32,000 bases of DNA from Polynucleobacter sp. GWA2_45_21 (GCF_001830325.1 NZ_MHZG01000004.1:1-32000); one strand, 5' to 3'. Numbered from the stretch's first letter, positions 2,734-16,437 are shown. Program-made: numbers and translations. The notes: generated by a model from the sequence alone, not told the origin.

Positions 2734-2808
2734 GGTATTTCCTTTCTGATTGGGTAAAAGCAGGGGTGAGCCAGTAAGTGCTACACCCCTGTCAAGACTT
2801 GCAAAGGC

Positions 2809-3585
2809 TTAAGCCATTTCTTTGAAGAAGGCTTGATTGGCTGCTTCAGTAATCGCCGCTTGCGCTGCGAGTTCTGCCTGGGCTTTAACATGCTCCTCGA
2901 CCTTGTTGAGCAATTCTTGCGCGATCTTGCGAATCGCTTGCTCAATCATGGCGCCAGACGAACCCGGAACAACGCTTAAGACCTGCGTTTGACCACTAGC
3001 TAGCATCTTGCCAATTAAGAGCGTGTATTCAGCAGAATCAGCTGGATGCGCTAAGGCAGTTTTTGGCACCAAACTCAACGGGTGTTGTAGTTGGTTAACT
3101 AATAATTGCTTAACCTCGGCAACCTTATTATCAAGCTGACTACGCTTTTTAATGGTCTCATCGGTAATGCCCTTAGTACTGGCTACTTCTTCAATACCGC
3201 CTACCTTGATTACCCATTCAGCGAAATTACCCACTGAAATCGACTCTTTAGCTGCTACTCGTAATGCACGGGAATAAGCAGAAGCGCGGCGGCGCTCAGC
3301 ATTAAATACGTACTTTACGATCAAGGTCAGTACTGGGGTGCTGGTTTGTACCTTAATGCCACGTCCTTCTAGATTGGCTTTAATACCTTCTAAAACGACT
3401 TTCTCAGCAGAGCTGCCTTTAATTTCGTAATACATACCAAGGCAATCCGAGAGAAGGGCGTAAAGCGCCTTATTGGATTTATCGTAAAAGTCCCGTTGCC
3501 AGACTTGACGACGGTTTGCTAATGCATCTAGTTTTACCAAAGTGGCGTTAGCGATTTCTTGCTTTTGATTTGCTGTGATTCTCAT
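2809..3585 (-). CDS. Hypothetical, mostly helical protein (first gene of the clamp-loader-like operon)
   Basis: 258-aa ORF preceded by a strong RBS (AAGGAG, 7 nt before the ATG at 3585). Ala/Glu/Gln-rich coiled-coil-like C-terminus. No family recognised. Confidence 0.65.
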   Translation of the reverse strand: MRITANQKQEIANATLVKLDALANRRQVWQRDFYDKSNKALYALLSDCLGMYYEIKGSSAEKVVLEGIKANLEGRGIKVQTSTPVLTLIVKYVFNAERRRASAYSRALRVAAKESISVGNFAEWVIKVGGIEEVASTKGITDETIKKRSQLDNKVAEVKQLLVNQLQHPLSLVPKTALAHPADSAEYTLLIGKMLASGQTQVLSVVPGSSGAMIEQAIRKIAQELLNKVEEHVKAQAELAAQAAITEAANQAFFKEMA

Positions 3586-3729
3586 GGTGTTGCTCCTTCA
3601 AGTTTTAAAAATACCAACACGTTTTAGCGAAAGTGCTGATGAAACTTTTTGTGTTGATGGAGTCACTGTATATTTTTGAGATTTTTCGAACAAATCACAG
3701 CGTTGTTTTATTTCCTTGACACAAAATTC

Positions 3730-3760
3730 CGAAAAATCAAAGCCCCATGAACAGGGGCTT
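3730..3760 (-). terminator. Putative rho-independent terminator (minus strand)
   Basis: Stem AAGCCCC/GGGGCTT (3740-3746 / 3754-3760) with a 7-nt loop, followed on the minus strand by TGATTTTTCGG. Confidence 0.4.
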
Positions 3761-3806
3761 GTAAGGTGTTTTTAACATTGAGAAAAAATCACTAAAAAAC
3801 TTCGTT

Positions 3807-3854
3807 TGAAAATTTCATACAAAATTAACTATGAAATTATTGTGAAAATTTTCA
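3807..3854. promoter_or_regulatory. Pair of AT-rich palindromes (candidate operators) in a 387-bp intergenic region
   Basis: TGAAAATTTCA (3807-3817) and the perfect palindrome TGAAAATTTTCA (3843-3854), 36 bp apart. Related GAAAAnTTTC-like words recur nearby. Confidence 0.3.
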
Positions 3855-3900
3855 GTGAAGTGTTTTCAATTTACTATTAATCTTAGGCGAAAACTTCGCT

Positions 3901-3936
3901 CTAAAAATAAAAAACCAGCCGGGTGATAGGCTGGTT
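3901..3936 (-). terminator. Rho-independent terminator of the TA operon (minus strand)
   Basis: Stem AACCAGCC/GGCTGGTT (3913-3920 / 3929-3936) with an 8-nt loop, followed on the minus strand by TTTTATTTTTAG. It lies 37 nt past the toxin stop. Confidence 0.6.
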
Positions 3937-3972
3937 GATCAGAGTCTAATTGCTGATTAGCTGCTTAGTTGA

Positions 3973-4302
3973 TTACTTTTTTCCGTAGGCGGCATCGTGG
4001 TCTGGCTCAATTAATAACACTCTAAGAAAGTGATCCTCTCTAAAGCCGATCCCCCGAATTGATTTGCTAACCCGAAACGAGTAGAGTGCATCGATACCCT
4101 TTGGGGCGGGGATACTATGAATCTTTTCCCATTTGAGACCTTTGTCACGGTAAACCTGGTTCCAGGTCAGTTGCGTGATCTTCTCAAAAGTAGCAAAGGC
4201 CTTCTCTTGTTCGGCTAACTCCAATGTCTCCCAGGTAGATTGAAAGACCGGGCTATTGAGATCAAGCTCAACTAATGGCTCAGGCTTTACGTTTCGTGCC
4301 AT
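3973..4302 (-). CDS. Putative type II toxin (RelE/ParE-superfamily-like)
   Basis: 109 aa, overlapping the upstream antitoxin gene by 23 nt. The C-terminal part YSFRVSKSIRGIGFREDHFLRVLLIEPDHDAAY resembles RelE/HigB-type toxin cores. The family assignment is tentative. Confidence 0.55.
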   Translation of the reverse strand: MARNVKPEPLVELDLNSPVFQSTWETLELAEQEKAFATFEKITQLTWNQVYRDKGLKWEKIHSIPAPKGIDALYSFRVSKSIRGIGFREDHFLRVLLIEPDHDAAYGKK

Positions 4303-4570
4303 GCGCTTTAGCCATTTTTAATTTAGAAAGATCAGTCGCTTTTGCCGGGGTTTTTTGTGCCCAAGCTAGAGCAGCCGATAAGTCCTTTTTAACGGCAGGC
4401 GTATGCATCCAACGTTCATTATCAGGAATAACCGTGGCTGTACGAATCACCCAAACCCCTGGCTCAGGCGTTTCTACTAGTACTTGACGTCCTGCATGCT
4501 CTTTACCAAGCGAAATTTGTCCGCTTGATCCAATCGACTTAATAACCTGGTGATCTATGACTGCGCCCAT
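4280..4570 (-). CDS. AbrB/MazE/SpoVT-type antitoxin
   Basis: 96 aa. The N-terminal swapped-hairpin-like segment IKSIGSSGQISLGKEHAGRQVLVE is followed by a basic tail. It lies upstream of and overlaps a small toxin-sized ORF. Confidence 0.7.
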   Translation of the reverse strand: MGAVIDHQVIKSIGSSGQISLGKEHAGRQVLVETPEPGVWVIRTATVIPDNERWMHTPAVKKDLSAALAWAQKTPAKATDLSKLKMAKAHGTKRKA

Positions 4571-4596
4571 GGCATTCTCCTATATTCATGCTGCAT

Positions 4597-4627
4597 GATT
4601 GCATTATAGCATGATTTTTATGCAATC
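4597..4627. promoter_or_regulatory. Inverted repeat GATTGCAT-N15-ATGCAATC in the TA promoter region (candidate autoregulatory operator)
   Basis: Perfect 8-bp arms at 4597-4604 and 4620-4627, 27-57 nt upstream of the antitoxin ATG. GCATGATT occurs twice. A minus-strand TATAAT lies at 4603-4608. Confidence 0.35.
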
Positions 4628-4683
4628 GGACTGACATTTCACCATGGCACAACCCTGGGCAAAGTCTTTGAGTCCGAACTCAC

Positions 4684-5250
4684 TTAGATCAGTTCAACGG
4701 CCTGTCTCTTTTGCTCATCATTGACATCGATGTACCTTTGAGTCACCGCAATGGATCGATGACCAGCTAATGAGGCTAAGATTCGCACGCCAATGCCTTT
4801 ATTAGCCAAGGTGGTGATAAAGAACTTCCTTCCAGAGTGGCTGCTACCACCACTGATGCCCACATTCTTATACAGCTGGTGAAACCAAACGCATAAGCCA
4901 TTTGGGCTAAAGCGTAAGCGGTGATCTGTGTGAAAAAAGGGGATATCAGCGCCTTTGGCGTGTCTTGTTGTGAGGTAGTTGGCTAACTCCACCTGCAAAC
5001 GCTGCGAAACAAAGACGGTTCTGGGATATTTGCCCTTGGTCTGGGCGGCTGAGAGGCGAATCTCATTTTTAATGGTGCCATCGGGGTTCACTACATCACC
5101 CATCGTTAAAGAGGCTATTTCGGCTACGCGAAGGCCTCCGAGAAAACTGGTAAGAATGATTGCGCGATCACGCAAGGCATATTTTTTGGTGCTGACGTAG
5201 TCTAGAACAATATCAAGTTCTGCTTGAGATAAGGTTTTTGCTTGTGCCAT
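4684..5250 (-). CDS. Catalytic-domain-only tyrosine recombinase (188 aa)
   Basis: GGLRVAEI (Arg), TKGKYPRTVFV (Lys), SHSGRKFFIT (HxxR), LAGHRSIAVTQRYIDV (His...Tyr). No N-terminal SAM-like or arm-binding domain. Confidence 0.85.
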   Translation of the reverse strand: MAQAKTLSQAELDIVLDYVSTKKYALRDRAIILTSFLGGLRVAEIASLTMGDVVNPDGTIKNEIRLSAAQTKGKYPRTVFVSQRLQVELANYLTTRHAKGADIPFFHTDHRLRFSPNGLCVWFHQLYKNVGISGGSSHSGRKFFITTLANKGIGVRILASLAGHRSIAVTQRYIDVNDEQKRQAVELI

Positions 5251-5306
5251 TTGTTTTTCCTGTCATAAATAAAATGTGCGTTTTAAGTATGTTTCCTTAA
5301 CGGGAA

Positions 5307-5318
5307 AAGGTCGACCTC
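5307..5318. repeat. Left arm AAGGTCGACCTC of a 12-bp perfect inverted repeat
   Basis: Its reverse complement equals GAGGTCGACCTT at 6295-6306. It lies in the leader/promoter region of the small recombinase gene. Confidence 0.5.
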
Positions 5319-5383
5319 AGTTTGTTTGCTAACTGTCGTGTAACAGGACAAAAAGATCTTCCAAGAATCAATGACTTACAAAT

Positions 5384-5415
5384 CGGGTTAAGAATATAGT
5401 TATTTTCTTAACCCG
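5384..5415 (-). terminator. Strong hairpin; putative terminator after the 177-aa gene (minus strand)
   Basis: Perfect 11-bp stem CGGGTTAAGAA/TTCTTAACCCG with a 10-nt loop. A second 6-bp hairpin GTCGTC-TTTA-GACGAC lies at 5455-5470. Confidence 0.45.
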
Positions 5416-5491
5416 TATTTGCTTATAAGTATTTAGCAATCTTCATTAAGATCTGTCGTCTTTAGACGACGACCTTAGCTAATGCTTCAAA

Positions 5492-6025
5492 TTACTGGAT
5501 AGCGTATTTTTGTAAGTTCTCAAGTGCTTGCTTATGCCCACCGACAAATACGCCGTTTGTAGACGGTTTTTGAGGGGAATTTAGCTCTGATTGCGTTGTG
5601 GCTATCAGTGCTGGGGTGGGTTTGCCGGGAATTCTGGCAATACAGCTGCGGATTGGCAATTCCCAGTAATCATTTATTCCGTGCTCTGAATCTTTAATTT
5701 CAATATAAATTCTGCTGTAGTTCATATCCAAAGACGCATATCCCTCAATAGGGCTTTTTGAGCCATTCTCGTAGCGGTAGATCCAACTCATCAATACTCC
5801 ATCCTCATTAGCTGGGATATTGCTTAAGCGTCCTGCCATTTCCACATGCACTGGACTCTTTGGAAAGTGAAACCAGGCTTCAACTTCCTCAAAATCTACT
5901 AAATACTTGGCATAAGGATTGGGGATCTCTAATGTGCCGTTATAGATGGCCTTGCGATATTGACCTTTGCCGAAGGTTGTTCCGTACATCTTGTTTTCCC
6001 ATAAGCGGGCTGTGATTTCTTTCAT
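5492..6025 (-). CDS. Hypothetical protein
   Basis: ORF 5492..6076. I prefer the ATG at 6025 (MKEITARLW...), which follows AAGGAG by 7 nt. No family recognised. Confidence 0.6.
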   Translation of the reverse strand: MKEITARLWENKMYGTTFGKGQYRKAIYNGTLEIPNPYAKYLVDFEEVEAWFHFPKSPVHVEMAGRLSNIPANEDGVLMSWIYRYENGSKSPIEGYASLDMNYSRIYIEIKDSEHGINDYWELPIRSCIARIPGKPTPALIATTQSELNSPQKPSTNGVFVGGHKQALENLQKYAIQ

Positions 6026-6060
6026 TTTTAATCTCCTTGAATATTGAAAGGAGTCGCGGT

Positions 6061-6205
6061 GTTGCTTGAGATGCAAGGAGTAGCAGAGACAAAAGATAGT
6101 TGCTGTTGCTTGAGTTGCTGTTCAGAGCTACTCATTTGCCCCCAATACAGCAACTAACTGCATCTCTTACTGCAACTTATTTCTTCTTCGCATCTCAATG
6201 CAACT
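6061..6205. repeat. Repeat-dense divergent control region (AGTTGC/GCAACT words)
   Basis: AGTTGCTGTT occurs twice (6098-6107, 6113-6122). The opposite orientation appears as CAGCAACT (6148-6155), GCATCTCTTACTGCAACT (6160-6177) and GCATCTCAATGCAACT (6190-6205). GTTGCTTGAGATGC (6061-6074) is a near-inverted repeat of 6190-6204. Confidence 0.45.
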
Positions 6206-6294
6206 CATTACGCGACTCGTAAATATTTAGCCCTTGTTAATAAAAACCATATTTTTTATGTCCAAAATGAGCCGATTTGCTCGTGATCTAAAAA

Positions 6295-6306
6295 GAGGTC
6301 GACCTT
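6295..6306. repeat. Right arm GAGGTCGACCTT of the 12-bp perfect inverted repeat
   Basis: Reverse complement of 5307-5318. It abuts the likely -35 region of the 6368 gene. Confidence 0.5.
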
Positions 6307-6367
6307 AAAAAGCTCTGAAATTAACCTGTATATAGGCAATCACGCCATTGATCACAAGGAGATGCAT

Positions 6368-6808
6368 ATGAGTCAATTAAGTAGCCTCAACCTAGTAGCA
6401 GTCAAAAAGCCGATGCACCAACCAGCCATTGTTATTCGTAGGAATAAGTTATCTAGTCATTTGTGGGAGCAGATTCAATTAGCAAAAGGGCAGTTATCGG
6501 GAACCCCATTTGTATTAATGAAGTTCCGTAGCATTAAGGATGCTCACACAGGGGTGCGTAAGCAAGTGGAGGTTCCCAAGAGGATCAAGCCTTGGTGGTT
6601 TCAGACGGAGGAGGGCAAAGTATGCGTGTCCATTAAATATGGAGCGCGAATACTTGAGTTAGCAAAAGGCAAACCCAGTATTCAAGTTGATAGTGCAGAA
6701 GATTTAATTAAGGCACTTGAAGCGGTTAAGGTTGCAGTAGAAGCAGGTGATTTAGATGCACAAATTGAAAATGCTAGTGACTTATTAAGAGCTGGATTTC
6801 GTAGGTAA
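6368..6808 (+). CDS. Hypothetical protein (looks like a conserved proteobacterial family of unknown function)
   Basis: ORF 6362..6808. The ATG at 6368 has proper spacing from AAGGAG (6356-6361). Motifs: VEVPKRIKPWWF and AVEAGDLDAQIE. It is co-oriented 70 nt upstream of integrase 3. Confidence 0.65.
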   Translation: MSQLSSLNLVAVKKPMHQPAIVIRRNKLSSHLWEQIQLAKGQLSGTPFVLMKFRSIKDAHTGVRKQVEVPKRIKPWWFQTEEGKVCVSIKYGARILELAKGKPSIQVDSAEDLIKALEAVKVAVEAGDLDAQIENASDLLRAGFRR

Positions 6809-6878
6809 GCTGGGGGATCTCAAATTCAAGGTGGCGCCTATTGCTGAGTAATCCAACTTTACTTTAATAAGGAAAACT

Positions 6879-7904
6879 ATGCGAGCAGTTGTAATAAAAC
6901 CCCATCCAATCGTCTTTGACAAAGTTGAAAGATTAATTAATGTCAATGGTATGAATTTTGAAGAAGAGTTTATTGCTAAGGTTATTGGCGAGCATTTAGC
7001 AAGGCAAAAAAGTGGCAAGCTACCCACGATTACAGATGCTTTTGAAATCTATATGCATGAAGCTAAATCTTCTCATCGCCCAACATTTGTGAAGCATGCT
7101 AACTACCATTTTCGTAGCTTTAAAGAGTTCTTTGGTGATTTAACATTAGAAGAGCTCAAGCATTGGCATATTACGGAATATAGAGATTACCAACTTAACA
7201 GAGGCATAAGCCCTACGAGCGTTCGTAAACACAACAATACTTTGAACGCTATGCTCAATGTCGCATTTAAACATTTAGATATAGATAGGCTAAGTCCTTT
7301 TAGGGCATTAAAAATTAGAGGTGAGGGTGAAACAAAGCGTTCTATGCCAATCATTACCACTCAGTTAATACAGCAAGTAAAAGAGCATTTGTTAAAAAAC
7401 TCGACTGCACATAAGCTGGTGGCACTGATACAGCTCAATACGGGATTTAGGTTGAGCGAACCTTTGTTTGCGAGATTGGAAGATTGTGTCTTGGATCATG
7501 ATATTCCGCACTTGTGGATTAGGCGAAATGTCCTAAGCGACAGAAAGACCAAATCCAGTATTAGAGCCGTGCCGCTATGCGGCGTGTCACTAGATGCTGC
7601 AAAAGAGCTATATAAGATTGCAAAAATGAAAAACAGCGACTGGTTTGTGCCGCATTACGCAAGAGATAATGGAAATTCTAGTTGCTCCCAAATTATTAAG
7701 AAAACACTTAAACAATTTGACTTTAAGAGTCATATGTTTAGGCATGCCATTATTGACAGAATGAAGGCTCGTAATGACATACCTACACGTCTAGCAGAAA
7801 GCATTACAGGGCATAGTAGTGGCGGGAGTGAATTTAATATGTATGGGACTGTTGGCTACACACTGGAGCAAAAGAGGGATGTAATTTTGAAGGTATTAAT
7901 TTAA
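6879..7904 (+). CDS. Tyrosine-type recombinase/integrase (island integrase 3)
   Basis: SAM-like N-domain (HITEYRDYQLNRGISPTSVRKHNNTLNAMLNVA). Catalytic GFRLSEP, HMFRHAIIDR (HxxR), ITGHSS, and a Tyr in NMYGTVGYT. Confidence 0.85.
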   Translation: MRAVVIKPHPIVFDKVERLINVNGMNFEEEFIAKVIGEHLARQKSGKLPTITDAFEIYMHEAKSSHRPTFVKHANYHFRSFKEFFGDLTLEELKHWHITEYRDYQLNRGISPTSVRKHNNTLNAMLNVAFKHLDIDRLSPFRALKIRGEGETKRSMPIITTQLIQQVKEHLLKNSTAHKLVALIQLNTGFRLSEPLFARLEDCVLDHDIPHLWIRRNVLSDRKTKSSIRAVPLCGVSLDAAKELYKIAKMKNSDWFVPHYARDNGNSSCSQIIKKTLKQFDFKSHMFRHAIIDRMKARNDIPTRLAESITGHSSGGSEFNMYGTVGYTLEQKRDVILKVLI

Positions 7905-7939
7905 GCATAAGGGCGTCTAGTTGCTAGAGGCCCTTATGC
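7905..7939 (+). terminator. Hairpin immediately after the integrase 3 stop
   Basis: Perfect 10-bp stem GCATAAGGGC/GCCCTTATGC with a 15-nt loop. There is no clear U-tract, so terminator function is uncertain. Confidence 0.4.
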
Positions 7940-7975
7940 ATACTGCTTTACGGTTAAGAAAAGCTAAATATCTAT

Positions 7976-8122
7976 ATGAAAAGATATAAGGCAACCGTCA
8001 ATGCAGCAGGGATGTGGGTAGAAACGATTTTGTACGCCCAAAATCAAGCCCAGGCATACAAGTTGTTTCAAGCTATCTTTGGCGCTAAAAACGTGCCACA
8101 TCAACCCTTGCAGATTGGTTAA
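7976..8122 (+). CDS. Possible small protein (48 aa), below the ORF-track cutoff
   Basis: ATG...TAA reading MKRYKATVNAAGMWVETILYAQNQAQAYKLFQAIFGAKNVPHQPLQIG. Protein-like composition but no clear RBS. Confidence 0.3.
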   Translation: MKRYKATVNAAGMWVETILYAQNQAQAYKLFQAIFGAKNVPHQPLQIG

Positions 8123-8124
8123 CT

Positions 8125-8304
8125 ATGAGATTCGATGAAATAGCACCCATAAAGCCCCTAAGCCCAGAACAAGCCAGACTTAAATCAATGAAGGATCGAG
8201 TAAAGCGAGATCAAGAGGCTATAAAGGCTGAGCGGGCTAGACAAAAGATCAAGGCTGGGCAGGCGGAGTTGAGTTTGATTTCGAAACCTGGTCTTGCAAA
8301 CTAA
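8125..8304 (+). CDS. Possible small basic protein (59 aa), below the ORF-track cutoff
   Basis: Starts 2 nt after the previous small ORF's stop: MRFDEIAPIKPLSPEQARLKSMKDRVKRDQEAIKAERARQKIKAGQ... Overlaps the 3' end of the convergent SRPBCC gene by 56 nt, which weakens the call. Confidence 0.2.
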   Translation: MRFDEIAPIKPLSPEQARLKSMKDRVKRDQEAIKAERARQKIKAGQAELSLISKPGLAN

Positions 8305-8758
8305 TGGCTAGTTGTTTTAGAGTTGTGAGGTTATTGATCCACTTTGTGTAGTAACCACGATTCCAAAGCCAGCTTACTACGTTCATATCTTTAAAATGAG
8401 CATCTACTGTCAGTTCCGTTCCATTTTGAAATGGCCTTAAGTTAAATATTATGGTTTCAGCAAGCGAGGAGGATGATGGGTAAAGTTGCTTAGTCAGGGC
8501 GGTAGTCGCTATCAATTTCTGACATTTGACAACTAGAATATAGACGTAGGTACTATGGACTTCTCTACCATTAATGATTGATGAAATGGTTGTGTGTCCA
8601 CATGCTGAGACATTCATTTCAACAACTCTACCTTGGTGTGGTGATATCCACCACCATTTTGAAAGCAATTGTGGTTCAGTAAGGAATCTCCAAACCACAT
8701 TTGGGGTGGCACTTATTTGTATTGTTTCTTTTAGGTGCGGTAATTTATTTTCTGTCAT
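8249..8758 (-). CDS. SRPBCC (START/AHSA1-like) ligand-binding-fold protein
   Basis: N-terminal signature ISATPNVVWRFLTEPQLLSKWW, typical of AHSA1/SRPBCC proteins. 26 nt downstream of and co-oriented with the MBL gene. Confidence 0.65.
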   Translation of the reverse strand: MTENKLPHLKETIQISATPNVVWRFLTEPQLLSKWWWISPHQGRVVEMNVSACGHTTISSIINGREVHSTYVYILVVKCQKLIATTALTKQLYPSSSSLAETIIFNLRPFQNGTELTVDAHFKDMNVVSWLWNRGYYTKWINNLTTLKQLAISLQDQVSKSNSTPPAQP

Positions 8759-8784
8759 TTTGTATGGCTATCGATTGCTTAACT

Positions 8785-9939
8785 CTATGCTTCTTGATCA
8801 TCTGGGTAATGTGCTGGTTCAGCAGGGCCCCAACCAGTTCGAGGGGGTGCTTTATGGCTATGGCGAAGATGCTTTCCTTCTGTTTTGACTAACTTCCCCC
8901 CTCTATGAATTATTGCGCGAATGACTGATTTCCTGGGATGGTTAGCATCTTTCTTTGCTGCACTCACGACTGCCGTAAATTGCTCTTCTCCGGGTAGAGG
9001 TTTATTTTTTAGTATGGGCCCAAGAATCTCATCAAGAATTTCTGACGAAACATTTCTTCTGGATCCATGGTGAGGAACTTGAAAAAAATTGATTCCAGGA
9101 AATTGAATTCCAATTGTTGTTGCATAGTTAATTGAACTTCTCAGCGCTGCTTTTCCTGCATCACCAGTTAATAAAACTTTTCTTCCATGTAAATTCGCAT
9201 ACTGAACAATGCTCATTTCATTCTCTGGGCTAGTCTCTTCTTGAGATAGGTTCTCGTCACCCCATGCTGACTTGATAAATTCAACTGTTTTTGAATAAAT
9301 TTCACCAAGAGTGGAGAGTGGTGATGTCATAAAGCTGTTGAGTGTAGTCTGAGGTAAGGGTATAGGGTATGGCAATGTAGTAAGCCCCGCCCTCTGAATA
9401 TTCTCAGCTATGTTTTTTGCGTCTGGAGTTTTTGGTGAATCTACAATTAGATCGAGGTAAGCCTTTTTTGATGGCGATAAAACTATAAATTCACCAATTT
9501 TTTTTCCTTGAAAGGGCTCTCTGATTTCAATTCCATTTTCGATCGCAATTTTTTCAAGAGCATCAATATTTGAATAAATTTCTCGCAATTTTTTTTGCAA
9601 GCTTTCAACGGACGCATACCTGCTGAAGCGATGAATAATTTCATGGGCATAGTCCCATGGTTTAAGCATCCAAAGGGTGCCAACTTCATATTCTTCAAGA
9701 ATTTTTCTTAATCCGCCAGCATGGTCTTGATCATTGTGTGTGAGAACTACATGATTGATATGAATTGGGTCATCATAATGCTCATTAATATGGGTAACGA
9801 GAATATTCCCTGTATCCTGAAACCCACCGTCTACAACATGAATATACGTTGCTCCATTAAGTTTATATCTTAGGCAAATTGCATCACCACTCTTATCTGA
9901 ATCAACATCCAAAATATCTATCTCATAAAAATCATCCAT
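8785..9939 (-). CDS. Standalone ComEC/Rec2-type MBL-fold metallo-hydrolase (putative nuclease)
   Basis: ORF 8785..9978. I prefer the ATG at 9939 (MDDFYEIDIL), after GAGGG. Motif series: DKSGDAICL, VVLTHNDQDHAGGL, VLLTGDAG, FQVPHHGSRRN, matching the ComEC C-terminal MBL domain pattern. No ComEC channel domain is present. Confidence 0.85.
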   Translation of the reverse strand: MDDFYEIDILDVDSDKSGDAICLRYKLNGATYIHVVDGGFQDTGNILVTHINEHYDDPIHINHVVLTHNDQDHAGGLRKILEEYEVGTLWMLKPWDYAHEIIHRFSRYASVESLQKKLREIYSNIDALEKIAIENGIEIREPFQGKKIGEFIVLSPSKKAYLDLIVDSPKTPDAKNIAENIQRAGLTTLPYPIPLPQTTLNSFMTSPLSTLGEIYSKTVEFIKSAWGDENLSQEETSPENEMSIVQYANLHGRKVLLTGDAGKAALRSSINYATTIGIQFPGINFFQVPHHGSRRNVSSEILDEILGPILKNKPLPGEEQFTAVVSAAKKDANHPRKSVIRAIIHRGGKLVKTEGKHLRHSHKAPPRTGWGPAEPAHYPDDQEA

Positions 9940-10399
9940 TTTTACCCTCATGTTTTTCTGATTGTTTGGATGGCTCAATTCCCCATACTGATTGACCTAT
10001 AGACTCAATTTTTGATAGTGTTTTATCTACATTTAAGCCGGCCAAAAAGGCTAATAGCCAAATCCCAAGCTGATGTAGCTCCCCTTGATTTGCATTTAAG
10101 AAAAGGAGCCCTGACTTTATTAATAGATAGCTTATGCCCCCTAAGGCAAGACTTAAAAATGGCCTTATGAGATACCAAGGCGCCCAGTCAGAATCCCATT
10201 TCTTGCGAACGCATGCATTGAGGTAGACCCCTCGCAAACAATAGATGGTGCCGCCAAGACCCCCAAAGAGGATGCTTAGCAGTATGTTTTTAAGTGCAAC
10301 TGGTACAGCGTCGGGATGACAAAAGCTCAGATAAAATAGTGCAAACGTTACAAGTCCAAGCTCAATAAGTAATAAAACAGAAATAATCCACTTGCTCAT
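9932..10399 (-). CDS. Small integral membrane protein (about 4 TM helices)
   Basis: 155 aa with four hydrophobic segments and Gly-rich helix motifs (FGGLGGTIY, ALGGISYLL). Its stop overlaps the MBL start by 8 nt (ATGGATGA). Confidence 0.75.
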   Translation of the reverse strand: MSKWIISVLLLIELGLVTFALFYLSFCHPDAVPVALKNILLSILFGGLGGTIYCLRGVYLNACVRKKWDSDWAPWYLIRPFLSLALGGISYLLIKSGLLFLNANQGELHQLGIWLLAFLAGLNVDKTLSKIESIGQSVWGIEPSKQSEKHEGKNG

Positions 10400-10603
10400 A
10401 AAAACCTCAAAATGTTCTTTTTTTTATAAAGATACCTGAGATATCAATTCTTTCAAGAGCTTTTTGGAAAATAAGTGCAAATTGCTATGCTAGCGTCGCG
10501 AAACCGGGTTCCTAGCGTCCCATGTATATCTTTTCCTAGGCATGCGGGAGCAAATCCCTATAGAAATTTGAATAAGTTCGCCAGGCTGATAAGATTGGAA
10601 ATT

Positions 10604-10984
10604 ATGAGAATTTATCGCAATATTTCCGAGTCCAAACGGCAAACCACTGATTACGATGTTTTATGGAATGGTGAGGACCAAGGATTAATAACATCTTGGG
10701 AAACCGGAAGGGATAAGGCAAAGTCAGACCCAGAATTGGCTGCAAGAGCTAAAAATGGTGAATTAGTTATGTTGGGTTGGAAGGGTGGCGTGGGTAAGCC
10801 CCTCAAAACTAAGAATAAATATGGTGGTCTGCTTTATGTGGCTATGTGGCAGGGTCTTCGTGGGGAAAATCTGGATATAGATCTAGAGAGTGAAATACGA
10901 ATGATATGCACACGAACAGGTGTGCCTGTTACCTATACCTCTAACGTTAAATTACTTTGCGCTTCTGAGGAGTCCGATGACTAA
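10604..10984 (+). CDS. Hypothetical protein, translationally coupled to the exonuclease-BRCT gene
   Basis: ORF 10475..10984 (GTG). Alternative ATGs lie at 10487 and 10604 and the start is uncertain. Its stop overlaps the next start by 8 nt (ATGACTAA). No family recognised. Confidence 0.5.
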   Translation: MRIYRNISESKRQTTDYDVLWNGEDQGLITSWETGRDKAKSDPELAARAKNGELVMLGWKGGVGKPLKTKNKYGGLLYVAMWQGLRGENLDIDLESEIRMICTRTGVPVTYTSNVKLLCASEESDD

Positions 10985-12131
10985 GGTATTAGTGCTTGAT
11001 ACAGAGACTAGCGGAGTTTCTAGCTCGGACGAGCCCATTGAAATAGCTGCAGCTTTATATGAAGTAGATTCGACCGGCAATTTAGTTGCAAAGCTAGATA
11101 CTTACAGCGGTAGGCGTGAGCCAACGGTCCCGATTAGTTTTATGGCGCAAAAGGTTCATAAAATCTCTAAAGCAGACCTTGCTGGTCGGGATTTCGATCA
11201 CGAGAAAGTTGCGGTTTTACTATCTAATGCTGATGTTATTGTTGCGCACAACGCTGATTTTGATAGTCGAATGCTTCAGCCGCTTTACCCTGGAATCAAG
11301 GATAAATCCTGGCGCTGCACCATCAACCAATGGCCTTGGCCATTTGCATCGGGGAAATCTTTATCTTCGGTTGCGTCGGCATTAGATATCCCACAAATTA
11401 ATGCCCATTCAGCAGAAGGAGATGTAGATACATTAAGTGCTTGTCTTTTCCATTCCACAGGCAATGGAAATTACCTTAAAAATCTTTTGACCGCAAACGA
11501 TTACGTATTTAAAAACACATCTGAAAATGCCTATCAGAGAGCCGCAAGTAGCCTTACGCCTAAGGTAAGTGAGGCCTGCAAGAGCTTATTAGATATTGTT
11601 GGTGCCGTAATCTCGGATAGGCATTTACATGATTCTGAAATCATGTTTGTTAATGACTGGATTAAGGCGAATCCTACAGTTTCAACTTCGTGGCCTGGGA
11701 GTGTGATTGCGCAGCAACTTAAGCAAATACTTTCCGATAGAATAGTTTCAGAAAATGAGCGCAGCTCTTTGTTGAATAGTCTGAGTGCAATTACTGCGGG
11801 CGCTCTTGCTAAAGTCTCGCAGGTTGCTGAGGAGATCGATTTTCATCCAGACGAGCTAGATGTAATTGAATTTGCATCCCATACCTTTTGTTTAAGTGGA
11901 AATTTTCTATTGGGCGATAAGGATAAGTGTGCCAATGAGATCTCCAAGAGGGGTGGTTTGATACTGGCTGGTGTCACTAAAAAGTTAAATTACTTGGTAG
12001 TGGGCGGCTTAGGCAGCGATCAATGGAAGCATGGTAATTTTGGCGCTAAAGTCGAGAAAGCTATTCAATATCGCTCCGATGGCATTCCCATAAAGATAGT
12101 TCACGAAGAATCTTTGGTGAAATTTCTATAA
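10977..12131 (+). CDS. DEDDh 3'-5' exonuclease (DnaQ/epsilon-like) fused to a helical middle module and a C-terminal BRCT domain
   Basis: ATG 10977 after GAGGAG. ExoI VLVLDTETSG, ExoII IVAHNADFDSRML, ExoIII HSAEGDVDTL. The middle has duplicated SDRxxxxxE helices (ISDRHLHDSE, LSDRIVSENE; TerB-like, tentative). The C-terminus FCLSGNFLLGDKDKCANEISKRGGLILAGVTKKLNYLVVG...KVEKAIQY is BRCT-like. Confidence 0.85.
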   Translation: MTKVLVLDTETSGVSSSDEPIEIAAALYEVDSTGNLVAKLDTYSGRREPTVPISFMAQKVHKISKADLAGRDFDHEKVAVLLSNADVIVAHNADFDSRMLQPLYPGIKDKSWRCTINQWPWPFASGKSLSSVASALDIPQINAHSAEGDVDTLSACLFHSTGNGNYLKNLLTANDYVFKNTSENAYQRAASSLTPKVSEACKSLLDIVGAVISDRHLHDSEIMFVNDWIKANPTVSTSWPGSVIAQQLKQILSDRIVSENERSSLLNSLSAITAGALAKVSQVAEEIDFHPDELDVIEFASHTFCLSGNFLLGDKDKCANEISKRGGLILAGVTKKLNYLVVGGLGSDQWKHGNFGAKVEKAIQYRSDGIPIKIVHEESLVKFL

Positions 12132-12156
12132 CAAGTGTCTCGAAACAGGACACTTG
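12131..12156 (+). repeat. Hairpin-forming 26-nt repeat, copy B: ACAAGTGTC-TCGAAACAG-GACACTTG
   Basis: Begins on the last base of the exonuclease stop codon. The stem is extendable to 10 bp (AACAAGTGTC/GACACTTGTT). No U-tract follows. Confidence 0.7.
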
Positions 12157-12244
12157 TTAGTTATAAAACCCTCTAGATCAGGGCTAGACAGTTATCAATC
12201 ACGTAACTAAACTGAGCCAGCCCTTCAGTTGCCAAAGGCTTTTA

Positions 12245-12619
12245 ATGAAATACTCTGTATTCCTGGGATTACTGCTAGCGGCTGGACTAGTCAATGCCGC
12301 CAGTTATGACTGTACAGCTACGAGAAAGCTGGACTTTGAGAATGTCTACCAGCCAGCTCAAATGGAAAAGTACAAGTTTTCCTTCAGAATCCACGATTCA
12401 GACAAACCCAAAGTCGATAGATGCAGTATTAAACCCAACGACAATAAAGTCACTTGTGATTCCTACGATATTGATAGGGTAGAAGTAGATAAGCATGTGG
12501 GATACAAGAAGTTCTACTTATTTAGAAGTCAGTACGACATTCAACTCTTTCCAGACTTGAGGTTTGTTGAAAACAACGGTCGTGGTGGAATTGCTTTTGG
12601 GACTTGTAAATTACTATGA
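12245..12619 (+). CDS. Small secreted protein of unknown function
   Basis: Signal peptide MKYSVFLGLLLAAGLVNA|ASYDC. The mature part has four Cys. Confidence 0.65.
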   Translation: MKYSVFLGLLLAAGLVNAASYDCTATRKLDFENVYQPAQMEKYKFSFRIHDSDKPKVDRCSIKPNDNKVTCDSYDIDRVEVDKHVGYKKFYLFRSQYDIQLFPDLRFVENNGRGGIAFGTCKLL

Positions 12620-12783
12620 TGAATGAATACTCTGGGGTAGGCTTTTTCTTGTTTGGGATCTTCTGTGCTTATTGGGCGCAGACAACCAATCGCAATGCTT
12701 GGCTTTGGTTCTTTATGGGATTCTTCTTTGCCCCAATAACTGGGTTGGTATTGCTTTATAAGAATTCGTCGAAGAATGGTTGA
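12616..12783 (+). CDS. Possible 55-aa two-helix membrane peptide (below the ORF-track cutoff)
   Basis: ATG overlaps the upstream stop (ATGATGA). Sequence MMNEYSGVGFFLFGIFCAYWAQTTNRNAWLWFFMGFFFAPITGLVLLYKNSSKNG has two hydrophobic stretches. Confidence 0.45.
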   Translation: MMNEYSGVGFFLFGIFCAYWAQTTNRNAWLWFFMGFFFAPITGLVLLYKNSSKNG

Positions 12784-12798
12784 TTTTTTCTTGGAGCC

Positions 12799-13497
12799 AT
12801 GTCTGTGACTGATGCCAATGTTTCTGTGTCATCTTTGGAGGCTGTTTCTGCAGTTGACTCAATTCAATCAAGAGTTATTTCAAGTCTATCAATTACACAT
12901 TTTTTATCTGCAGCATCTTTTTCAAGAAAAGTTGGCCAGTTAGAGACTGACCATGTTGGTGAAGTGTTTGGGGATTTCTTTGAGGAAATACAGTCTTTTT
13001 CTATTGCTACGATATTTTCGTTGGTAGCCGCTTTGGAGGCTTACGCTAACGAGCTATTTGTTCTATATAAAGACGTTATATTCCCCGATTTACGAATTGA
13101 TGTTGTTGCTAAGCTGTGGGAGTTGTACGAAAAAAAGCCAACTGTTGAGAAGTATGACTTGGCATTATTCCTTGCAAATAAACCTGCCTTAGAAAAAGGC
13201 GGTCGACCTTATCAAGATATTGATGCGCTAATTAAACTCAGAAATGGTTTTGTTCATTACAGACCAGAGTGGTCTGATGAGCAAGTAGAGCATCGAAAAA
13301 TTTCTGTAGCTATATCTGGTAAAGCAATTGGCAGTTCGTTTTATCCAACGGAAACACCTTTATTTCCAAGAGCGTGGTCTAGTCATAAAACCTTATTGTG
13401 GGCTCTAAATAATTCGATTGAATTTGTGGAGAAATTTGAATCGCAAATGGGGATTTCTAGCAATCTTTTACCTTTTAAAGATCGGTTAAGGGGTTGA
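12799..13497 (+). CDS. Putative HEPN-domain protein (predicted RNase fold)
   Basis: Rx4H motif LRNGFVH (R148..H153; nt 13240-13257) in a helical context. Upstream segment LVAALEAYANELF resembles the acidic helix of Abi-type HEPN families. Confidence 0.55.
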   Translation: MSVTDANVSVSSLEAVSAVDSIQSRVISSLSITHFLSAASFSRKVGQLETDHVGEVFGDFFEEIQSFSIATIFSLVAALEAYANELFVLYKDVIFPDLRIDVVAKLWELYEKKPTVEKYDLALFLANKPALEKGGRPYQDIDALIKLRNGFVHYRPEWSDEQVEHRKISVAISGKAIGSSFYPTETPLFPRAWSSHKTLLWALNNSIEFVEKFESQMGISSNLLPFKDRLRG

Positions 13498-13498
13498 T

Positions 13499-14176
13499 AT
13501 GTTGAAGTATTTGAAAACATGCCCCATAGAAGCTAATTTAATTGCCTTGATAGCGTTGGTAATCCTTGGAATTAAGGTTATTTTCTTAAATTCTATTCCT
13601 GCATCAAGTCAGCTGATATATGATTTTGGTGTAGTTTTCGATGCAATTTTGATTTCAGTTTTAGCTAGTTTTATTTTTTATTTCTTTGTAGTTCATCTCA
13701 AAGCAGTATCAGATAGAAAAACTATCTGGCCATATGTTGGGAGGCATTCCAATTCGATAACTGGATCTTGCCTTGGGCAATTGTCGGAAATAAGCAAGGC
13801 TTCCAGTGTTGCTCTCACATTGAAAAACTTGAACGTCGAAGACGTTAGCTTAGCATTTGCAAAAATTCACCCCTACTCAGAGGCACCATTGCGCATAGGT
13901 TATCCTGGTGTTGCAGCAAATTGGATTCAATACTTTGAATATCACAATCGAAGAAGTAGAGTTGCAATTGGAAGGGTATTAGGGCAACTCATATATTTGG
14001 AGCCGAAGCATGTAAGCCTTATTAATGCTATAGATGATTGTGCTCACTTCATGGTTATCGATGGCTTTGGTAGCCATCAAGTCTCCAATACTGATCTTAC
14101 CGCTTGGTCAAGTTCGTTTTGCGACTACTGCATTTTTTGTCGAGAGCTTGATGATTATTTAAAGAAGTTTGATTAA
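13499..14176 (+). CDS. Membrane-anchored protein (2 N-terminal TM helices + ~150-aa soluble domain), unknown function
   Basis: Starts 1 nt after the HEPN gene stop (TGAtATG). TM segments LIALIALVILGIKVIFL and VVFDAILISVLASFIFYFFVV. Confidence 0.65.
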   Translation: MLKYLKTCPIEANLIALIALVILGIKVIFLNSIPASSQLIYDFGVVFDAILISVLASFIFYFFVVHLKAVSDRKTIWPYVGRHSNSITGSCLGQLSEISKASSVALTLKNLNVEDVSLAFAKIHPYSEAPLRIGYPGVAANWIQYFEYHNRRSRVAIGRVLGQLIYLEPKHVSLINAIDDCAHFMVIDGFGSHQVSNTDLTAWSSSFCDYCIFCRELDDYLKKFD

Positions 14177-14199
14177 TCATGATTGTCGGCTTACCCGAC

Positions 14200-14224
14200 A
14201 AACTGTCGCGTTTCGAGACGCTCG
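14200..14224 (-). repeat. Degenerate copy C of the hairpin repeat, opposite orientation
   Basis: The reverse complement CGAGCGTCTCGAAACGCGACAGTTT matches copy B at 19/25 positions, including a 10-nt run GTCTCGAAAC. The stem is not conserved. Confidence 0.45.
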
Positions 14225-14319
14225 CGGTCCATGAGTCTCACCCAGCGTAGATCATCCCCACTTGAAACGTCCATTCAGTTCCGCATTGTTCCAAGCAGTG
14301 ACCATGACATTTCAAATAG

Positions 14320-14355
14320 CCAAAAGAAAAGGGACCACATTGCTGTGATCCCTTT
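14320..14355 (-). terminator. Putative terminator downstream of tRNA-Lys (minus strand)
   Basis: Stem AAAGGGA/TCCCTTT (14349-14355 / 14328-14334) with a 14-nt loop, followed on the minus strand by TCTTTTGG. Confidence 0.4.
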
Positions 14356-14362
14356 GTATTAC

Positions 14363-14438
14363 TGGTGGGTCGGGCGAGATTCGAACTCGCGACCAACGGA
14401 TTAAAAGTCCGCTGCTCTACCGACTGAGCTACCGACCC
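14363..14438 (-). tRNA. tRNA-Lys (anticodon UUU), CCA encoded
   Basis: Minus-strand sequence GGGTCGGTAGCTCAGTCGGTAGAGCAGCGGACTTTTAATCCGTTGGTCGCGAGTTCGAATCTCGCCCGACCCACCA folds as a cloverleaf. Acceptor GGGTCGG/CCGACCC, D arm GCTC/GAGC, anticodon stem GCGGA/TCCGT with loop CTTTTAA, T arm GCGAG/CTCGC with TTCGAAT. Confidence 0.95.
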
Positions 14439-14523
14439 AGTAAGACAGAAATTATAGCAAGAACTTGGTTTGGCTTCCCCGGTTTTCGGGTGTTGCCCTG
14501 TATGCCTTGTACTTACAAGTGCG

Positions 14524-15861
14524 CTAGGCGTTAGCGCGTCTGGCAACAGGTGGATTTTTGGAGAAATAGTCCTTAATTCCTCTCAAAATTGCCTCAGCAA
14601 TGCGGTCTTGATAAGCGTCATCATTGAGGCGAGCCTCTTCTTGAGGGTTGCTGATAAAGGCTGTCTCAACCAGGATTGAGGGGATATCAGGCGCTCTGAG
14701 GACGGCAAAGCTGGCTTGCTCCACCTTGTTTTTATGTAGCGGAGCAAATCCACCAATTTGCTTCAAGATCGACTGGCCCACTTGAAGCGAGTCTTTGATT
14801 TGGGCGGTGGTCGACATATCTAGTAATAAGTTAGCAACCTGCTTATCTTGCGTCTTGATATTGATGCCGCCAATTAAATCCGAGGCATTTTCTTTGTTGG
14901 CCATCCAGCGTGCAGTAGTGCTACTGGCACCCATTTGGGATAGGGCAAAAACGGAAGCGCCTTTGGCTCTGGGCTCGATAAATGCATCTGCATGAATCGA
15001 GACAAATAAATCCGCCTCCACTCGACGTGCTTTTTGCACTCGCGTATGTAGTGGCACAAAGTAGTCACCATCTCTAGTAAGAAAAGGGCGCATGTACGCA
15101 TCATTATCAATTTTGTCGCGCAAGCGTTTCGCAATAGAAAGAACAACATTTTTTTCTTTGGATCCCATCGCGCCAATTGCGCCTGGATCCTCTCCACCAT
15201 GGCCTGCATCGATGGCAACGGTAATGAGGCGCTTGTGTTTTGCTGGAGCTGCAGGTTGTTTTACATCTGGAATGGCTTGAGCTACCGGGGCTTTTGGAGC
15301 TTCTTTTTCTTTCTGGCTAGCAAATTGCGCAATCAAATCGATTTCTTCATTAGCTTTTTCTAGTGCACTTTCTTTGCGGGCACTACTCCTAACTAATTCC
15401 ATTAAAGGATCTGGCGGTGTCGCTGGATAGAGATCGAGAACCATACGGTATTGATATTCCGCAATGGGATCTAGCGTAAAGAGTTGAGGTTTAACTGGTT
15501 CTTTGAGGTCAAATACCAAACGCACCATGCCAGGTTGAAATTGCCCCACACGAATTTGTGAAACGTAGGGATCGTTAGGTTTGACCTTGGCTACCAGGTC
15601 TTTCAGGGTGGAGTTAAATTCCATGCCCTGAACATCAACTACCAAGCGATCGGGATTGGTGAGTAATTGTTGGGTGATAGGTAGTGCTTTATCGGATTCG
15701 AGCGTGATCCGCGTGTAATCTTCTGCTGGCCAAATGCGTACGCCCAATATCTTAGCGCCCCAAGCAATCTCCGCCTCGCCAAAAAAGAGAATAAAACCCA
15801 GCATCTTTGCTGAAGTTTTGAGATGCTTTCTTCTGGAGGAATTGAGGGGTAACTTACTCAT
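14524..15861 (-). CDS. amiC: N-acetylmuramoyl-L-alanine amidase (AMIN domain + amidase_3), Tat-type signal
   Basis: SRRKHL twin-Arg leader. AMIN-like RIWPAEDYTRITLE...RLVVDV. Amidase_3 core VAIDAGHGGEDPGA...SIHADA...ETAFISNP. Confidence 0.9.
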   Translation of the reverse strand: MSKLPLNSSRRKHLKTSAKMLGFILFFGEAEIAWGAKILGVRIWPAEDYTRITLESDKALPITQQLLTNPDRLVVDVQGMEFNSTLKDLVAKVKPNDPYVSQIRVGQFQPGMVRLVFDLKEPVKPQLFTLDPIAEYQYRMVLDLYPATPPDPLMELVRSSARKESALEKANEEIDLIAQFASQKEKEAPKAPVAQAIPDVKQPAAPAKHKRLITVAIDAGHGGEDPGAIGAMGSKEKNVVLSIAKRLRDKIDNDAYMRPFLTRDGDYFVPLHTRVQKARRVEADLFVSIHADAFIEPRAKGASVFALSQMGASSTTARWMANKENASDLIGGINIKTQDKQVANLLLDMSTTAQIKDSLQVGQSILKQIGGFAPLHKNKVEQASFAVLRAPDIPSILVETAFISNPQEEARLNDDAYQDRIAEAILRGIKDYFSKNPPVARRANA

Positions 15862-15863
15862 CT

Positions 15864-16394
15864 CTATTGGGCGTGTAATTTCTCTATGGCAGCAATCCCG
15901 TGTTCGGAGTTTGCTTTGAGCTCAATTTGTCTTGCATTCTCATCTTCGCCGGCGCTGAGATGAATTTCAATATCAAAAGCAGGTAGGGTGTCCTCAGCTT
16001 TCCCTGGCCACTCTACCAAGCAGAATCCAGGCTCATCAAAATGTTCTGCAAAGCCAGCTTCTTGCCACTCTAGTGGATCTCTCATGCGATAAAGATCAAA
16101 GTGATGAGCTGTAATGCTTGCTGCTGACGATGGATTGCCACTGTTGAGTTCAATGGGGTAGGGTTCGCACAAGGTATAGGTCGGGCTCTTCACTCGTCCT
16201 GAATATCCAAGGGCTTGTATCAGGTGACGAGCAAAGGTGGTTTTGCCGGCTCCAAGATCGCCTTCTAGAGAGATATTGAGGTGAATACTTTGATCTGCCT
16301 GAAATAGGTGGCTGAGGCTGGAGGCAAGTTTTTGTGCCAAGGCGATCGTATCCGCTTCTTGCCTACAATGTTGAGTAAATGAATTCTGAGCCAT
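15864..16394 (-). CDS. tsaE: tRNA t6A37 biosynthesis ATPase TsaE
   Basis: GDLGAGKTTFARHL, VKSPTYTL, HFDLYR motifs. Classic tsaE-amiC adjacency (2-nt gap). Confidence 0.9.
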   Translation of the reverse strand: MAQNSFTQHCRQEADTIALAQKLASSLSHLFQADQSIHLNISLEGDLGAGKTTFARHLIQALGYSGRVKSPTYTLCEPYPIELNSGNPSSAASITAHHFDLYRMRDPLEWQEAGFAEHFDEPGFCLVEWPGKAEDTLPAFDIEIHLSAGEDENARQIELKANSEHGIAAIEKLHAQ

Positions 16395-16437
16395 TTGCCT
16401 AGTTTATTCAATTATTAAGATACATTCTGTATTACGT

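Follow-up and report, generated by a model that had tools for sequence, protein, structure and literature searches.

The metallo-beta-lactamase (MBL) domain of the competence protein ComEC/Rec2 is described as a nuclease (PMC8579336). Defence MBLs that resemble it are zinc-dependent nucleases of double-stranded DNA (dsDNA) which are inactive through insertions, and among them HamM (Hachiman-MBL) and the MBLs associated with Avs2 and Avs4 stay inactive until they are cut by a protease (10.1101/2025.11.14.688446, 10.1101/2025.09.03.673762, PMC12799240). The 6A-MBL system, whose enzyme is a distant relative, is reported to be active against jumbo phages in Pseudomonas aeruginosa (van den Berg et al. 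2024, cited in 10.1101/2025.09.30.679545, PMC11601596), and its E2-E1 fusion is described as conjugating the enzyme, as in type II CBASS (PMC11601596). Finally, PADLOC-DB lists under the name PDC-M48 a pair formed by a transmembrane (TM) protein, PDC-M48A, and an MBL hydrolase, PDC-M48B. PADLOC phage-defence candidates are chosen for their association with defence genes, and PDC-M48 is itself a computational candidate. Here, we analyse a locus of this kind in a stretch of 32,000 nucleotides (nt) from Polynucleobacter sp. GWA2_45_21 (NZ_MHZG01000004.1, positions 1–32000; hereafter, the window), where genes for a four-helix membrane protein, a ComEC-type MBL hydrolase, and an AHSA1/SRPBCC protein follow one another on the minus strand.

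A sequence-only reading of this locus had proposed a membrane-associated nuclease module with a possible ligand sensor and knew of no named system with such a composition. A named candidate does exist, since the TM+MBL pair is PDC-M48: the MBL of the window matches the PDC-M48B model PDLC04676 over its full length (3.8e-156, 517 bits), and the commonest membrane partner of its relatives matches PDC-M48A (1.9e-71). As in PDC-M48, a small multi-TM gene is directly adjacent to the MBL gene, and the contexts are mobile or resemble defence islands. The difference lies in the membrane partner, which fits no PDC-M48A model and indeed no PADLOC family even at E<=10. The window locus is thus a predicted variant of PDC-M48 whose membrane partner comes from another family, one without a model; since the test for the PDC-M48A component fails, searches that demand both components would presumably miss it. 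From homology and architecture we propose, with moderate confidence, that it is a two-gene cassette in which a membrane-gated DNase would defend the cell against phages or other mobile genetic elements (MGEs).

The pair in the window and in other genomes

The genes for the membrane protein (9932–10399, minus strand; 155 amino acids, aa), the MBL hydrolase (8785–9939, minus; 384 aa), and the SRPBCC protein (8249–8758, minus; 169 aa) were recovered as open reading frames (ORFs) where the sequence-only reading had placed three co-oriented genes. The ORF list gives the MBL gene as 8785–9978 from a TTG codon, and translation from the ATG at 9939 (MDDFYEID) yields the 384-aa protein. The first two genes then share 8 nt, aaaaATGGATGAtttt, with the overlap motif ATGGATGA, and 26 nt separate the MBL gene from the SRPBCC gene; both distances agree with the first description. 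All three ORFs are real genes. In comparison with a 70–75% identical relative (locus L081), the ratio of nonsynonymous to synonymous substitution rates (dN/dS) is ~0.11 for the MBL and ~0.12 for the SRPBCC gene, with synonymous sites near saturation, and hence both are under purifying selection. For the membrane-protein gene dS is saturated and gives no ratio; the proportions of nonsynonymous and synonymous differences are 0.18 (pN) vs. 0.76 (pS).

The sole Pfam match of the MBL protein is Lactamase_B (1.1e-9), and the motifs GDAICL, THNDQDHAGG, LLTGD, and VPHHGS, by which it had been recognized as ComEC-like, are all present. Across 19 aligned homologues, which come from many phyla, the catalytic pattern HxDxDH...D...HH is intact in every protein, and residues H68, D70, D72, H73, D260, H290, and H291 are invariant. 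The best Foldseek match in the PDB is the beta-lactamase-like domain of ComEC (9ic4; 2.2e-11, TM-score 0.74 on the target), and a profile search of PDB sequences returned ComEC chains only. Taken together, the fold, profile, and domain searches confirm a ComEC-type MBL without the competence channel, and the protein does not cluster with housekeeping hydrolases. No hydrophobic segment or signal peptide is found in the MBL sequence, and lacking a signal peptide the enzyme, a predicted phosphodiesterase or nuclease that depends on metal, should be cytoplasmic.

Nevertheless, it is not a ComEC, as it has no channel and stays below the cut-off of the NCBIfam model ComEC_Rec2 (TIGR00361; 39.5 vs. 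190, 2e-10). Shared features are the fold, the motifs THPDxDHxGGL and VPHHGSR, and a presumed dependence on a membrane protein. In contrast to ComEC/Rec2, the window MBL has neither the OB/DUF4131 region nor the competence channel domain; it is a separate, cytoplasmic protein, whereas the ComEC domain is described as extracellular (PMC8579336); it has ~100 additional aa including a disordered loop; and its gene is patchy in distribution, mobile, and outside the competence regulon. The loop corresponds to residues 175–221 (codons at about 9276–9416, minus strand), which fall below 50 in predicted local confidence (pLDDT) in an AlphaFold2 (AF2) model with an overall pLDDT of 79 and a predicted TM-score (pTM) of 0.80. 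Alignment columns 176–217 are gapped in most homologues, the insertion being 17–25 residues longer than in most relatives. Between the HxDxDH motif and the C-terminal half, ~130 positions of the MBL profile face ~61 ComEC residues, and the resulting insert of ~70 residues relative to ComEC contains the disordered loop, as seen from the profile alignment and the AF2 model.

Outside the catalytic core, a C-terminal Y-P-x-x-Q-E motif (residues 378–384; window positions 8788–8808) is also invariant in the 19 homologues. It might be a partner-binding tail or a tail for conjugation by Cap2.

The second-best fold in the Foldseek search is the phosphorylcholine esterase Pce/CbpE (1.3e-9 to 6e-9), followed by the phosphodiesterase tw9814 (2.6e-5). 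These matches bring up another explanation, namely that the enzyme is not a nuclease but a membrane-recruited phosphodiesterase which, in the manner of Pce or NAPE-PLD, has lipid head groups or a polymer of the envelope as its substrate. It would damage or remodel the membrane, be it as an effector in defence or as an accessory of a mobile element. NAPE-PLD is an MBL-fold enzyme, and an obligatory membrane partner would indeed put the hydrolase at the bilayer. We consider this improbable, as ComEC ranks first both by structure and by sequence, including the NCBIfam ComEC_Rec2 match, the nearest defence homologues cut dsDNA, and the MBL is a cytoplasmic protein without a signal peptide.

Weaker profile matches link the MBL with several defence systems, and all of them differ from the window locus. 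PADLOC models of Lamassu LmuA (PDLC03854; 2.7e-26, nearly full length), a DRT-associated MBL (8e-20), and Avs1a (1.5e-10) are matched, whereas the NCBIfam models of Avs1a (NF041809; 55.5 bits vs. a cut-off of 420, 3.8e-15) and of the 6A-MBL enzyme (NF058524; 22.8 bits vs. 220) are matched below threshold. HamM, Avs1a, and the Avs2/Avs4-associated MBLs belong to the same clade of ComEC-like MBLs, stand alone, carry insertions relative to ComEC, and are modular, combining with different partners. The window MBL has a membrane protein as partner, and its insertion is variable and not obviously a cleavage cassette. As the neighbouring window ORFs scanned encode no protease resembling trypsin, caspase, or subtilisin, the pair is not a protease-MBL module of the Avs or Hachiman type. 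Likewise, it is not 6A-MBL, since the enzyme model is below its cut-off and there is no Cap2/3 gene (no match to E1, E2, or JAB in the window ORFs scanned, 91–17532); NCBIfam models 6A-MBL as Cap2/3 and the MBL enzyme only, with no membrane component. The PADLOC scan of 18 ORFs, located within 1428–14173, detected neither LmuB nor LmuC of Lamassu. More remote parallels are Kiwa (KwaA/KwaB) and Zorya, where a membrane sensor is combined with a DNA-targeting effector. A similar logic, with a small membrane protein and a soluble enzyme, is found in the "HAD-like hydrolase + TM" pair from the P4 hotspot, which blocks T7 (PMC9122126). All three are analogies only, having no sequence or fold relation to the window pair.

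The membrane protein has no match in Pfam, PADLOC, NCBIfam, or PHROGs. Our search found 313 homologues, of which one, 99% identical, is annotated as Polynucleobacter sp. The small four-TM protein with glycine-rich helices described by the sequence-only reading is borne out by the AF2 model (pLDDT 84), with four long helices (residues 2–26, 34–64, 70–100, and 107–122) and the segments FGGLGG and LALGG; a C-terminal amphipathic helix (124–138) follows. Foldseek comparison of the model with the PDB gave generic helical bundles alone (all E>0.7). The charge distribution points to a topology with both termini inside, so that loop 2 and the C-terminus would be cytoplasmic. Invariant residues gather in loop 2 (CLRGVYLNACVRKxWDxxW) and in a C-terminal GLNVDK...WG segment. 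Loop 2 and the C-terminal amphipathic helix, where conservation is highest, would therefore face the cytoplasm, in which the MBL must be.

We identified more than 2800 homologues of the MBL, which are mostly stand-alone proteins of ~360 aa and are 50–58% identical across very distant phyla. For the analysis of gene neighbourhoods, ORFs were called and neighbours clustered in 80 MBL-encoding loci from different species of many phyla. A small multi-TM protein is encoded directly next to the MBL in 77 of the 80 loci, usually upstream and with a 4-nt overlap; two of the three remaining loci are cut by a contig end. The pairing of TM and MBL genes, which the sequence-only reading had put forward as a question of recurrence, is a strong and general feature, and the notion that these two genes do not co-occur in other genomes is refuted. 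The conserved unit is a two-gene cassette rather than a three-gene one.

The membrane partners fall into five clusters. Cluster 2, present in 38 loci, consists of proteins of ~165 aa that match PDC-M48A. Clusters 5 (18 loci, ~214 aa), 7 (11 loci, ~278 aa, encoded downstream of the MBL), and 10 (8 loci, ~156 aa) match no PADLOC model, and cluster 19 (4 loci, ~227 aa) has a marginal match only. Cluster 10, partner "type C," is the family of the window; its members in loci L034 and L060 match no PADLOC family either. By profile-profile comparison (hhalign probabilities), clusters 7 and 19 are related at 94%, and clusters 2 and 19 have a weak link at 32%, whereas cluster 10 resembles no other partner cluster (1.3% against PDC-M48A). 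The five clusters thus probably represent four, and at least three, unrelated groups.

We examined 16 contexts of type-C membrane proteins, and in every one an MBL is adjacent. They comprise the window, L081, eight genome loci, loci from P. aeruginosa, Limnohabitans, and Paraburkholderia, and the metagenomic contigs L088, L099, and L101. In two of these, Limnohabitans (L087) and L101, the neighbouring MBL belongs to a different PDC-M48B subfamily. Identity of the MBLs is the same within a partner type and between types (0.57 vs. 0.57), from which we conclude that partners have been exchanged repeatedly. In a mirror-tree comparison of 11 type-C pairs, the TM and MBL distances correlate with r = 0.40, a weak value that we do not count as evidence.

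Some loci contain a second, shorter MBL (~270 aa; PDC-M48B model PDLC04674, 6e-105) after the MBL-TM pair. This three-gene form with two MBLs was observed in 11 of the 80 loci, e.g., L048, L051, L055, L057, L058 (Mesorhizobium), L005, L017, and L025.

Genomic contexts and proposed mechanism

The defence-island-like setting noticed by the sequence-only reading recurs among the relatives, whose contexts are mobile. In the P2-like coliphage P24E6b, and also in D8, 11W, and 12W, a PDC-M48A-type gene and the MBL gene are located directly after gpA, in the gpA–gpQ hotspot that has been shown to hold anti-phage systems (PMC9122126); the main text of that study names no MBL. Elsewhere, the neighbours of the pair include HigBA with a Pf prophage, ParE, NERD, AAA_13, and GmrSD together with Z1 and DUF4420, as well as MmeI-type restriction-modification with four toxin-antitoxin pairs, AriA (PARIS), MADS genes, MzaA, and type III methyltransferases. 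These are family lists from a scan of 124 neighbouring proteins against PADLOC, with no control set, and are not an enrichment statistic. The contexts support a defence function of the pair.

In the coliphage P24E6b (L097; NC_049389.1, 29118–30706), the MBL gene is convergent with the PDC-M48A-type membrane gene. Its label as a "tail protein" (PHROG 7043; NC_049389 gp43) is most likely an annotation error, given that it lies in the gpA–gpQ accessory hotspot beside a PDC-M48A gene.

The same contexts might also suit a module by which mobile elements achieve selfish addiction or exclusion and which has no anti-phage role, being either a pair of the toxin-antitoxin (TA) type, with a toxic MBL and a protective membrane protein or the reverse, or a device for surface or entry exclusion of related elements. 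Indeed, the pair is always found on islands, plasmids, or prophages, beside integrases and TA pairs, and its tight gene overlap is as in TA pairs. However, the pair also occupies the P2 gpA–gpQ hotspot and lies among restriction-modification, PARIS, MADS, and GmrSD genes rather than in maintenance regions only; PADLOC catalogues it as a phage-defence candidate; and proteins of 155 and 384 aa, as well as this class of enzyme, are atypical of TA pairs. We therefore give the selfish-module explanation little credence.

A protein of the 6A-MBL cap2_3 cluster is encoded within ~3.5 kb of the pair in 9 of the 80 loci. In four of them (L028, L056, L063, L067), the Cap2/3 gene forms one contiguous co-oriented block with the pair, and in the other five (L019, L040, L041, L055, L057) it is close but not contiguous. 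The one member that was scanned, from L019, scores 640 bits against an NCBIfam cut-off of 320. These loci suggest that the family has a "type II" form whose MBL is possibly a substrate of conjugation.

A further arrangement, found on about 15 Acinetobacter plasmids, is represented by the A. baumannii plasmid pOXA58_005078 (L098; NZ_CP027245.2, 13196–17757), where a 397-aa MBL, a Cap2/3-like protein annotated as "ThiF family," and another MBL are encoded in this order.

As to the mechanism, the membrane protein would be translationally coupled to the soluble, cytoplasmic MBL, which would be a metal-dependent DNase effector resembling the ComEC domain, HamM, and the Avs-associated MBLs. The membrane protein may hold or gate this enzyme on the cytoplasmic face of the inner membrane, until a membrane-level cue of infection, such as DNA injection or perturbation of the envelope or of the membrane potential, releases or activates it. 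The activated MBL would then degrade the incoming DNA, the cellular DNA, or both, giving anti-phage or anti-MGE defence. The window MBL retains every catalytic residue and, compared with ComEC, is extended by an insertion; a membrane partner takes the place of the protease. Gating of a DNase seems to us the most economical interpretation.

Several observations weigh against it. With no protease partner, the known route of activation of defence MBLs does not apply, and the Pce fold match leaves room for a phosphodiester substrate that is not DNA. The second MBL of L098 is 47% identical to that of the window, and no TM ORF is visible downstream of it. Our literature search found no experimental paper on PDC-M48. 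Moreover, small TM proteins in known systems are usually effectors (PMC9122126), and the combination of five partner clusters with one highly conserved MBL is a pattern that swapped effectors show more typically than sensors do.

The last two points lead to a reversal of roles, where the membrane protein is the killing effector, acting by depolarisation or as a pore, and the MBL is its sensor or activator, which might, e.g., bind or process foreign nucleic acid and so switch the membrane protein on. Such a reversal is a serious alternative, though on balance we doubt it. It would account for one MBL subfamily having five TM clusters, at least three of them unrelated, as this swapping is typical of effector modules, and it accords with the view of TM proteins in known systems as effectors (PMC9122126). 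PDC-M48A weakly resembles the Cas13b-associated membrane proteins (Csx27, tm_4; 1e-3). Besides, an E2-E1-JAB protein of the Cap2/3 type stands beside the MBL in related operons, and in CBASS and Pycsar this enzyme is described as acting on the signalling enzyme, not on the effector (PMC11601596). Conversely, every characterised homologue of the MBL clade is a DNase effector, all catalytic residues of the MBL are invariant, and the MBL is apparently able to act without a TM protein, as 6A-MBL is modelled with two components and some M48B-like MBLs have no TM partner.

The SRPBCC gene and its host island

The conserved cassette has two genes, and the third gene of the locus has to be placed separately. 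Its product matches Pfam AHSA1 (PF08327) over residues 17–150 with 36.6 bits, above the curated cut-off of 22.1 (6.2e-9), and has the signature VWRFLTEPQLLSKWW, in agreement with the first assignment to the AHSA1/SRPBCC fold. The role then suggested for it, that of a third component through which a small hydrophobic ligand would be sensed and the TM-MBL pair controlled, did not hold up. On the one hand, the gene is co-oriented with the pair and follows it after 26 nt, with no terminator-like site detected in between; L081 (73–75% identity) preserves this arrangement under purifying selection; and an SRPBCC gene closely follows the upstream cargo gene in L091 and L093 too. On the other hand, an SRPBCC homologue accompanies the MBL in none of the 80 loci, and the six type-C loci retrieved from further genomes also lack one. 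It is kept with the pair only in L081/L082 (73% MBL identity) and L083 (99%), and L081 is not independent evidence, because it shares the whole backbone of the element, including DUF6641 and a 188-aa integrase. A three-component system is therefore very improbable.

The distant relatives of the SRPBCC protein, which is nearly an orphan (a word search of 5.8 billion proteins gave 2 relatives, and HMMER run in full on 1.84 billion representatives gave 26), tell where the gene belongs. Relatives of 37–40% identity adjoin backbone ORFs that are 84–96% identical to those of the window (the ORFs compared were orf59, orf48, DUF6641, the 188-aa integrase, orf109, and orf258). In L091–L094, for instance, orf48 and orf59 are 84–91% identical to their window counterparts, and the neighbouring SRPBCC protein is just 37–40% identical. 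The cargo beside these relatives is entirely different from that of the window, and in one case the upstream genes are divergent from the SRPBCC gene. Thus, co-occurrence with the pair does not extend beyond related elements. Because the relatives keep their backbone neighbours but differ in cargo, the SRPBCC gene is best seen as a hypervariable boundary gene between the element backbone and a cargo hotspot, a conclusion drawn from comparison of gene neighbourhoods; in the comparison with L091–L096 its place is always at this border. The TM-MBL pair is one cargo cassette in this hotspot of a tRNA-Lys integrative island of Polynucleobacter.

Other cargoes next to SRPBCC relatives are a 115-aa protein and a putatively SIR2-like gene, judged by eye from its N-terminal GAGxH motif, in L091; an AAA_15/AAA_21 ATPase and a 93-aa protein in L093; and a kinase, PP2C, DUF4145, and DUF559 in L094.

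In the window, the variable cargo region (8759–14360) is bounded at its far end by tRNA-Lys(UUU) (14363–14438, minus), beyond which lie the core genes amiB, tsaE, and queG; in L094, whose cargo is different, a match to the tRNA-Lys region likewise stands at the far end. No repeat of the tRNA-Lys end (att) was found within 1–16000, and the other end of the island is therefore probably outside the window. On the near side, two small backbone ORFs of 48 and 59 aa (7976–8304, plus strand) mark a conserved edge of the mobile element and are convergent with the SRPBCC gene. The 59-aa ORF (8125–8304, plus) overlaps the 3' end of the SRPBCC gene by 56 nt, and the same convergent overlap is observed in L091, L092, and L093.

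A promoter-like site, TTGAAA-16-TATCTT (10429–10456, minus), is located upstream of the membrane-protein gene within a 75-nt divergent intergenic region; it is a match to the consensus only, and the number of sites in this region is not above shuffled expectation. The scan for promoters and terminators as a whole gave counts at or below shuffled expectation. The earlier description of the locus as the most AT-rich stretch of the island is true but marginal, the minimum of GC content in the window being 0.369 at 9001–10000 and the second-lowest value 0.375 at 13001–14000.

Divergent from the TM-MBL pair is a gene (10920–12131, plus) for a 403-aa 3'-5' exonuclease of the DEDDh type whose C-terminal region resembles BRCT/LigA; the protein matches PADLOC DEDDh (3.5e-22), the candidate PDC-S48 (6e-17), and phrog_3989 (7e-51). 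With it, the cargo region that holds the pair has a second candidate for a defence gene. Next to tRNA-Lys there is a tightly packed pair of genes for proteins of 232 aa (12799–13497, plus) and 225 aa (13499–14176, plus); neither they nor the ORFs at 12245–12619 and 10475–10984 (both plus), which are likewise cargo of this hotspot, match Pfam, PADLOC, NCBIfam, or PHROGs.

The window has three integrase-family genes (91–1428, 4684–5250, and 6879–7904). The last of these (plus strand) encodes a 341-aa tyrosine integrase and lies between DUF6641 and orf48, a position that is empty in L081 and occupied by a DUF2971 gene in L094. The backbone segment 2020–4302 (minus) is 74–94% conserved in L094 and includes an AAA ATPase similar to RFC and clamp loaders (2020–2733, minus), a 258-aa ORF without a match (2809–3585, minus), and a 109-aa ORF with a match to the C-terminal part of PADLOC NsnC (3e-10).

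Significance of the family

For the window itself the result is modest, being a new partner variant of a catalogued candidate system and not the discovery of a new one. The family is a different matter. If it proves to be a working defence system, PDC-M48 with its variants would be among the more widespread uncharacterised ones, given the more than 2800 MBL homologues. They occur in Pseudomonadota, Acidobacteriota, Planctomycetota, cyanobacteria, Clostridia, and Patescibacteria, and their carriers include P. aeruginosa, Acinetobacter plasmids, and P2-like coliphages. Tools that require both components may miss about half of the family, as the partner modelled in PADLOC is present in 38 of the 80 loci.

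The repeated swapping of unrelated membrane partners on one conserved enzyme is a natural experiment on the coupling of membrane events to a nuclease, and the Cap2/3 link ties the family to the regulatory logic of CBASS, Pycsar, and 6A-MBL. Much more tentatively, and with doubts that outweigh our confidence, one may imagine a widespread two-gene immune family of thousands of members in most bacterial phyla, in phages, and on plasmids, in which a ComEC-like nuclease has been coupled repeatedly to unrelated four-helix membrane proteins, so that an event at the inner membrane, e.g., injection of a genome or collapse of the membrane potential, would be turned into destruction of DNA at or near its site of entry, a kind of "reverse competence," with Cap2/3 acting on the YPxxQE tail to add a further layer of control in some lineages. 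The family-level picture of a conserved enzyme with several unrelated groups of partners and an optional Cap2/3 makes these pairs a good target for experiment.

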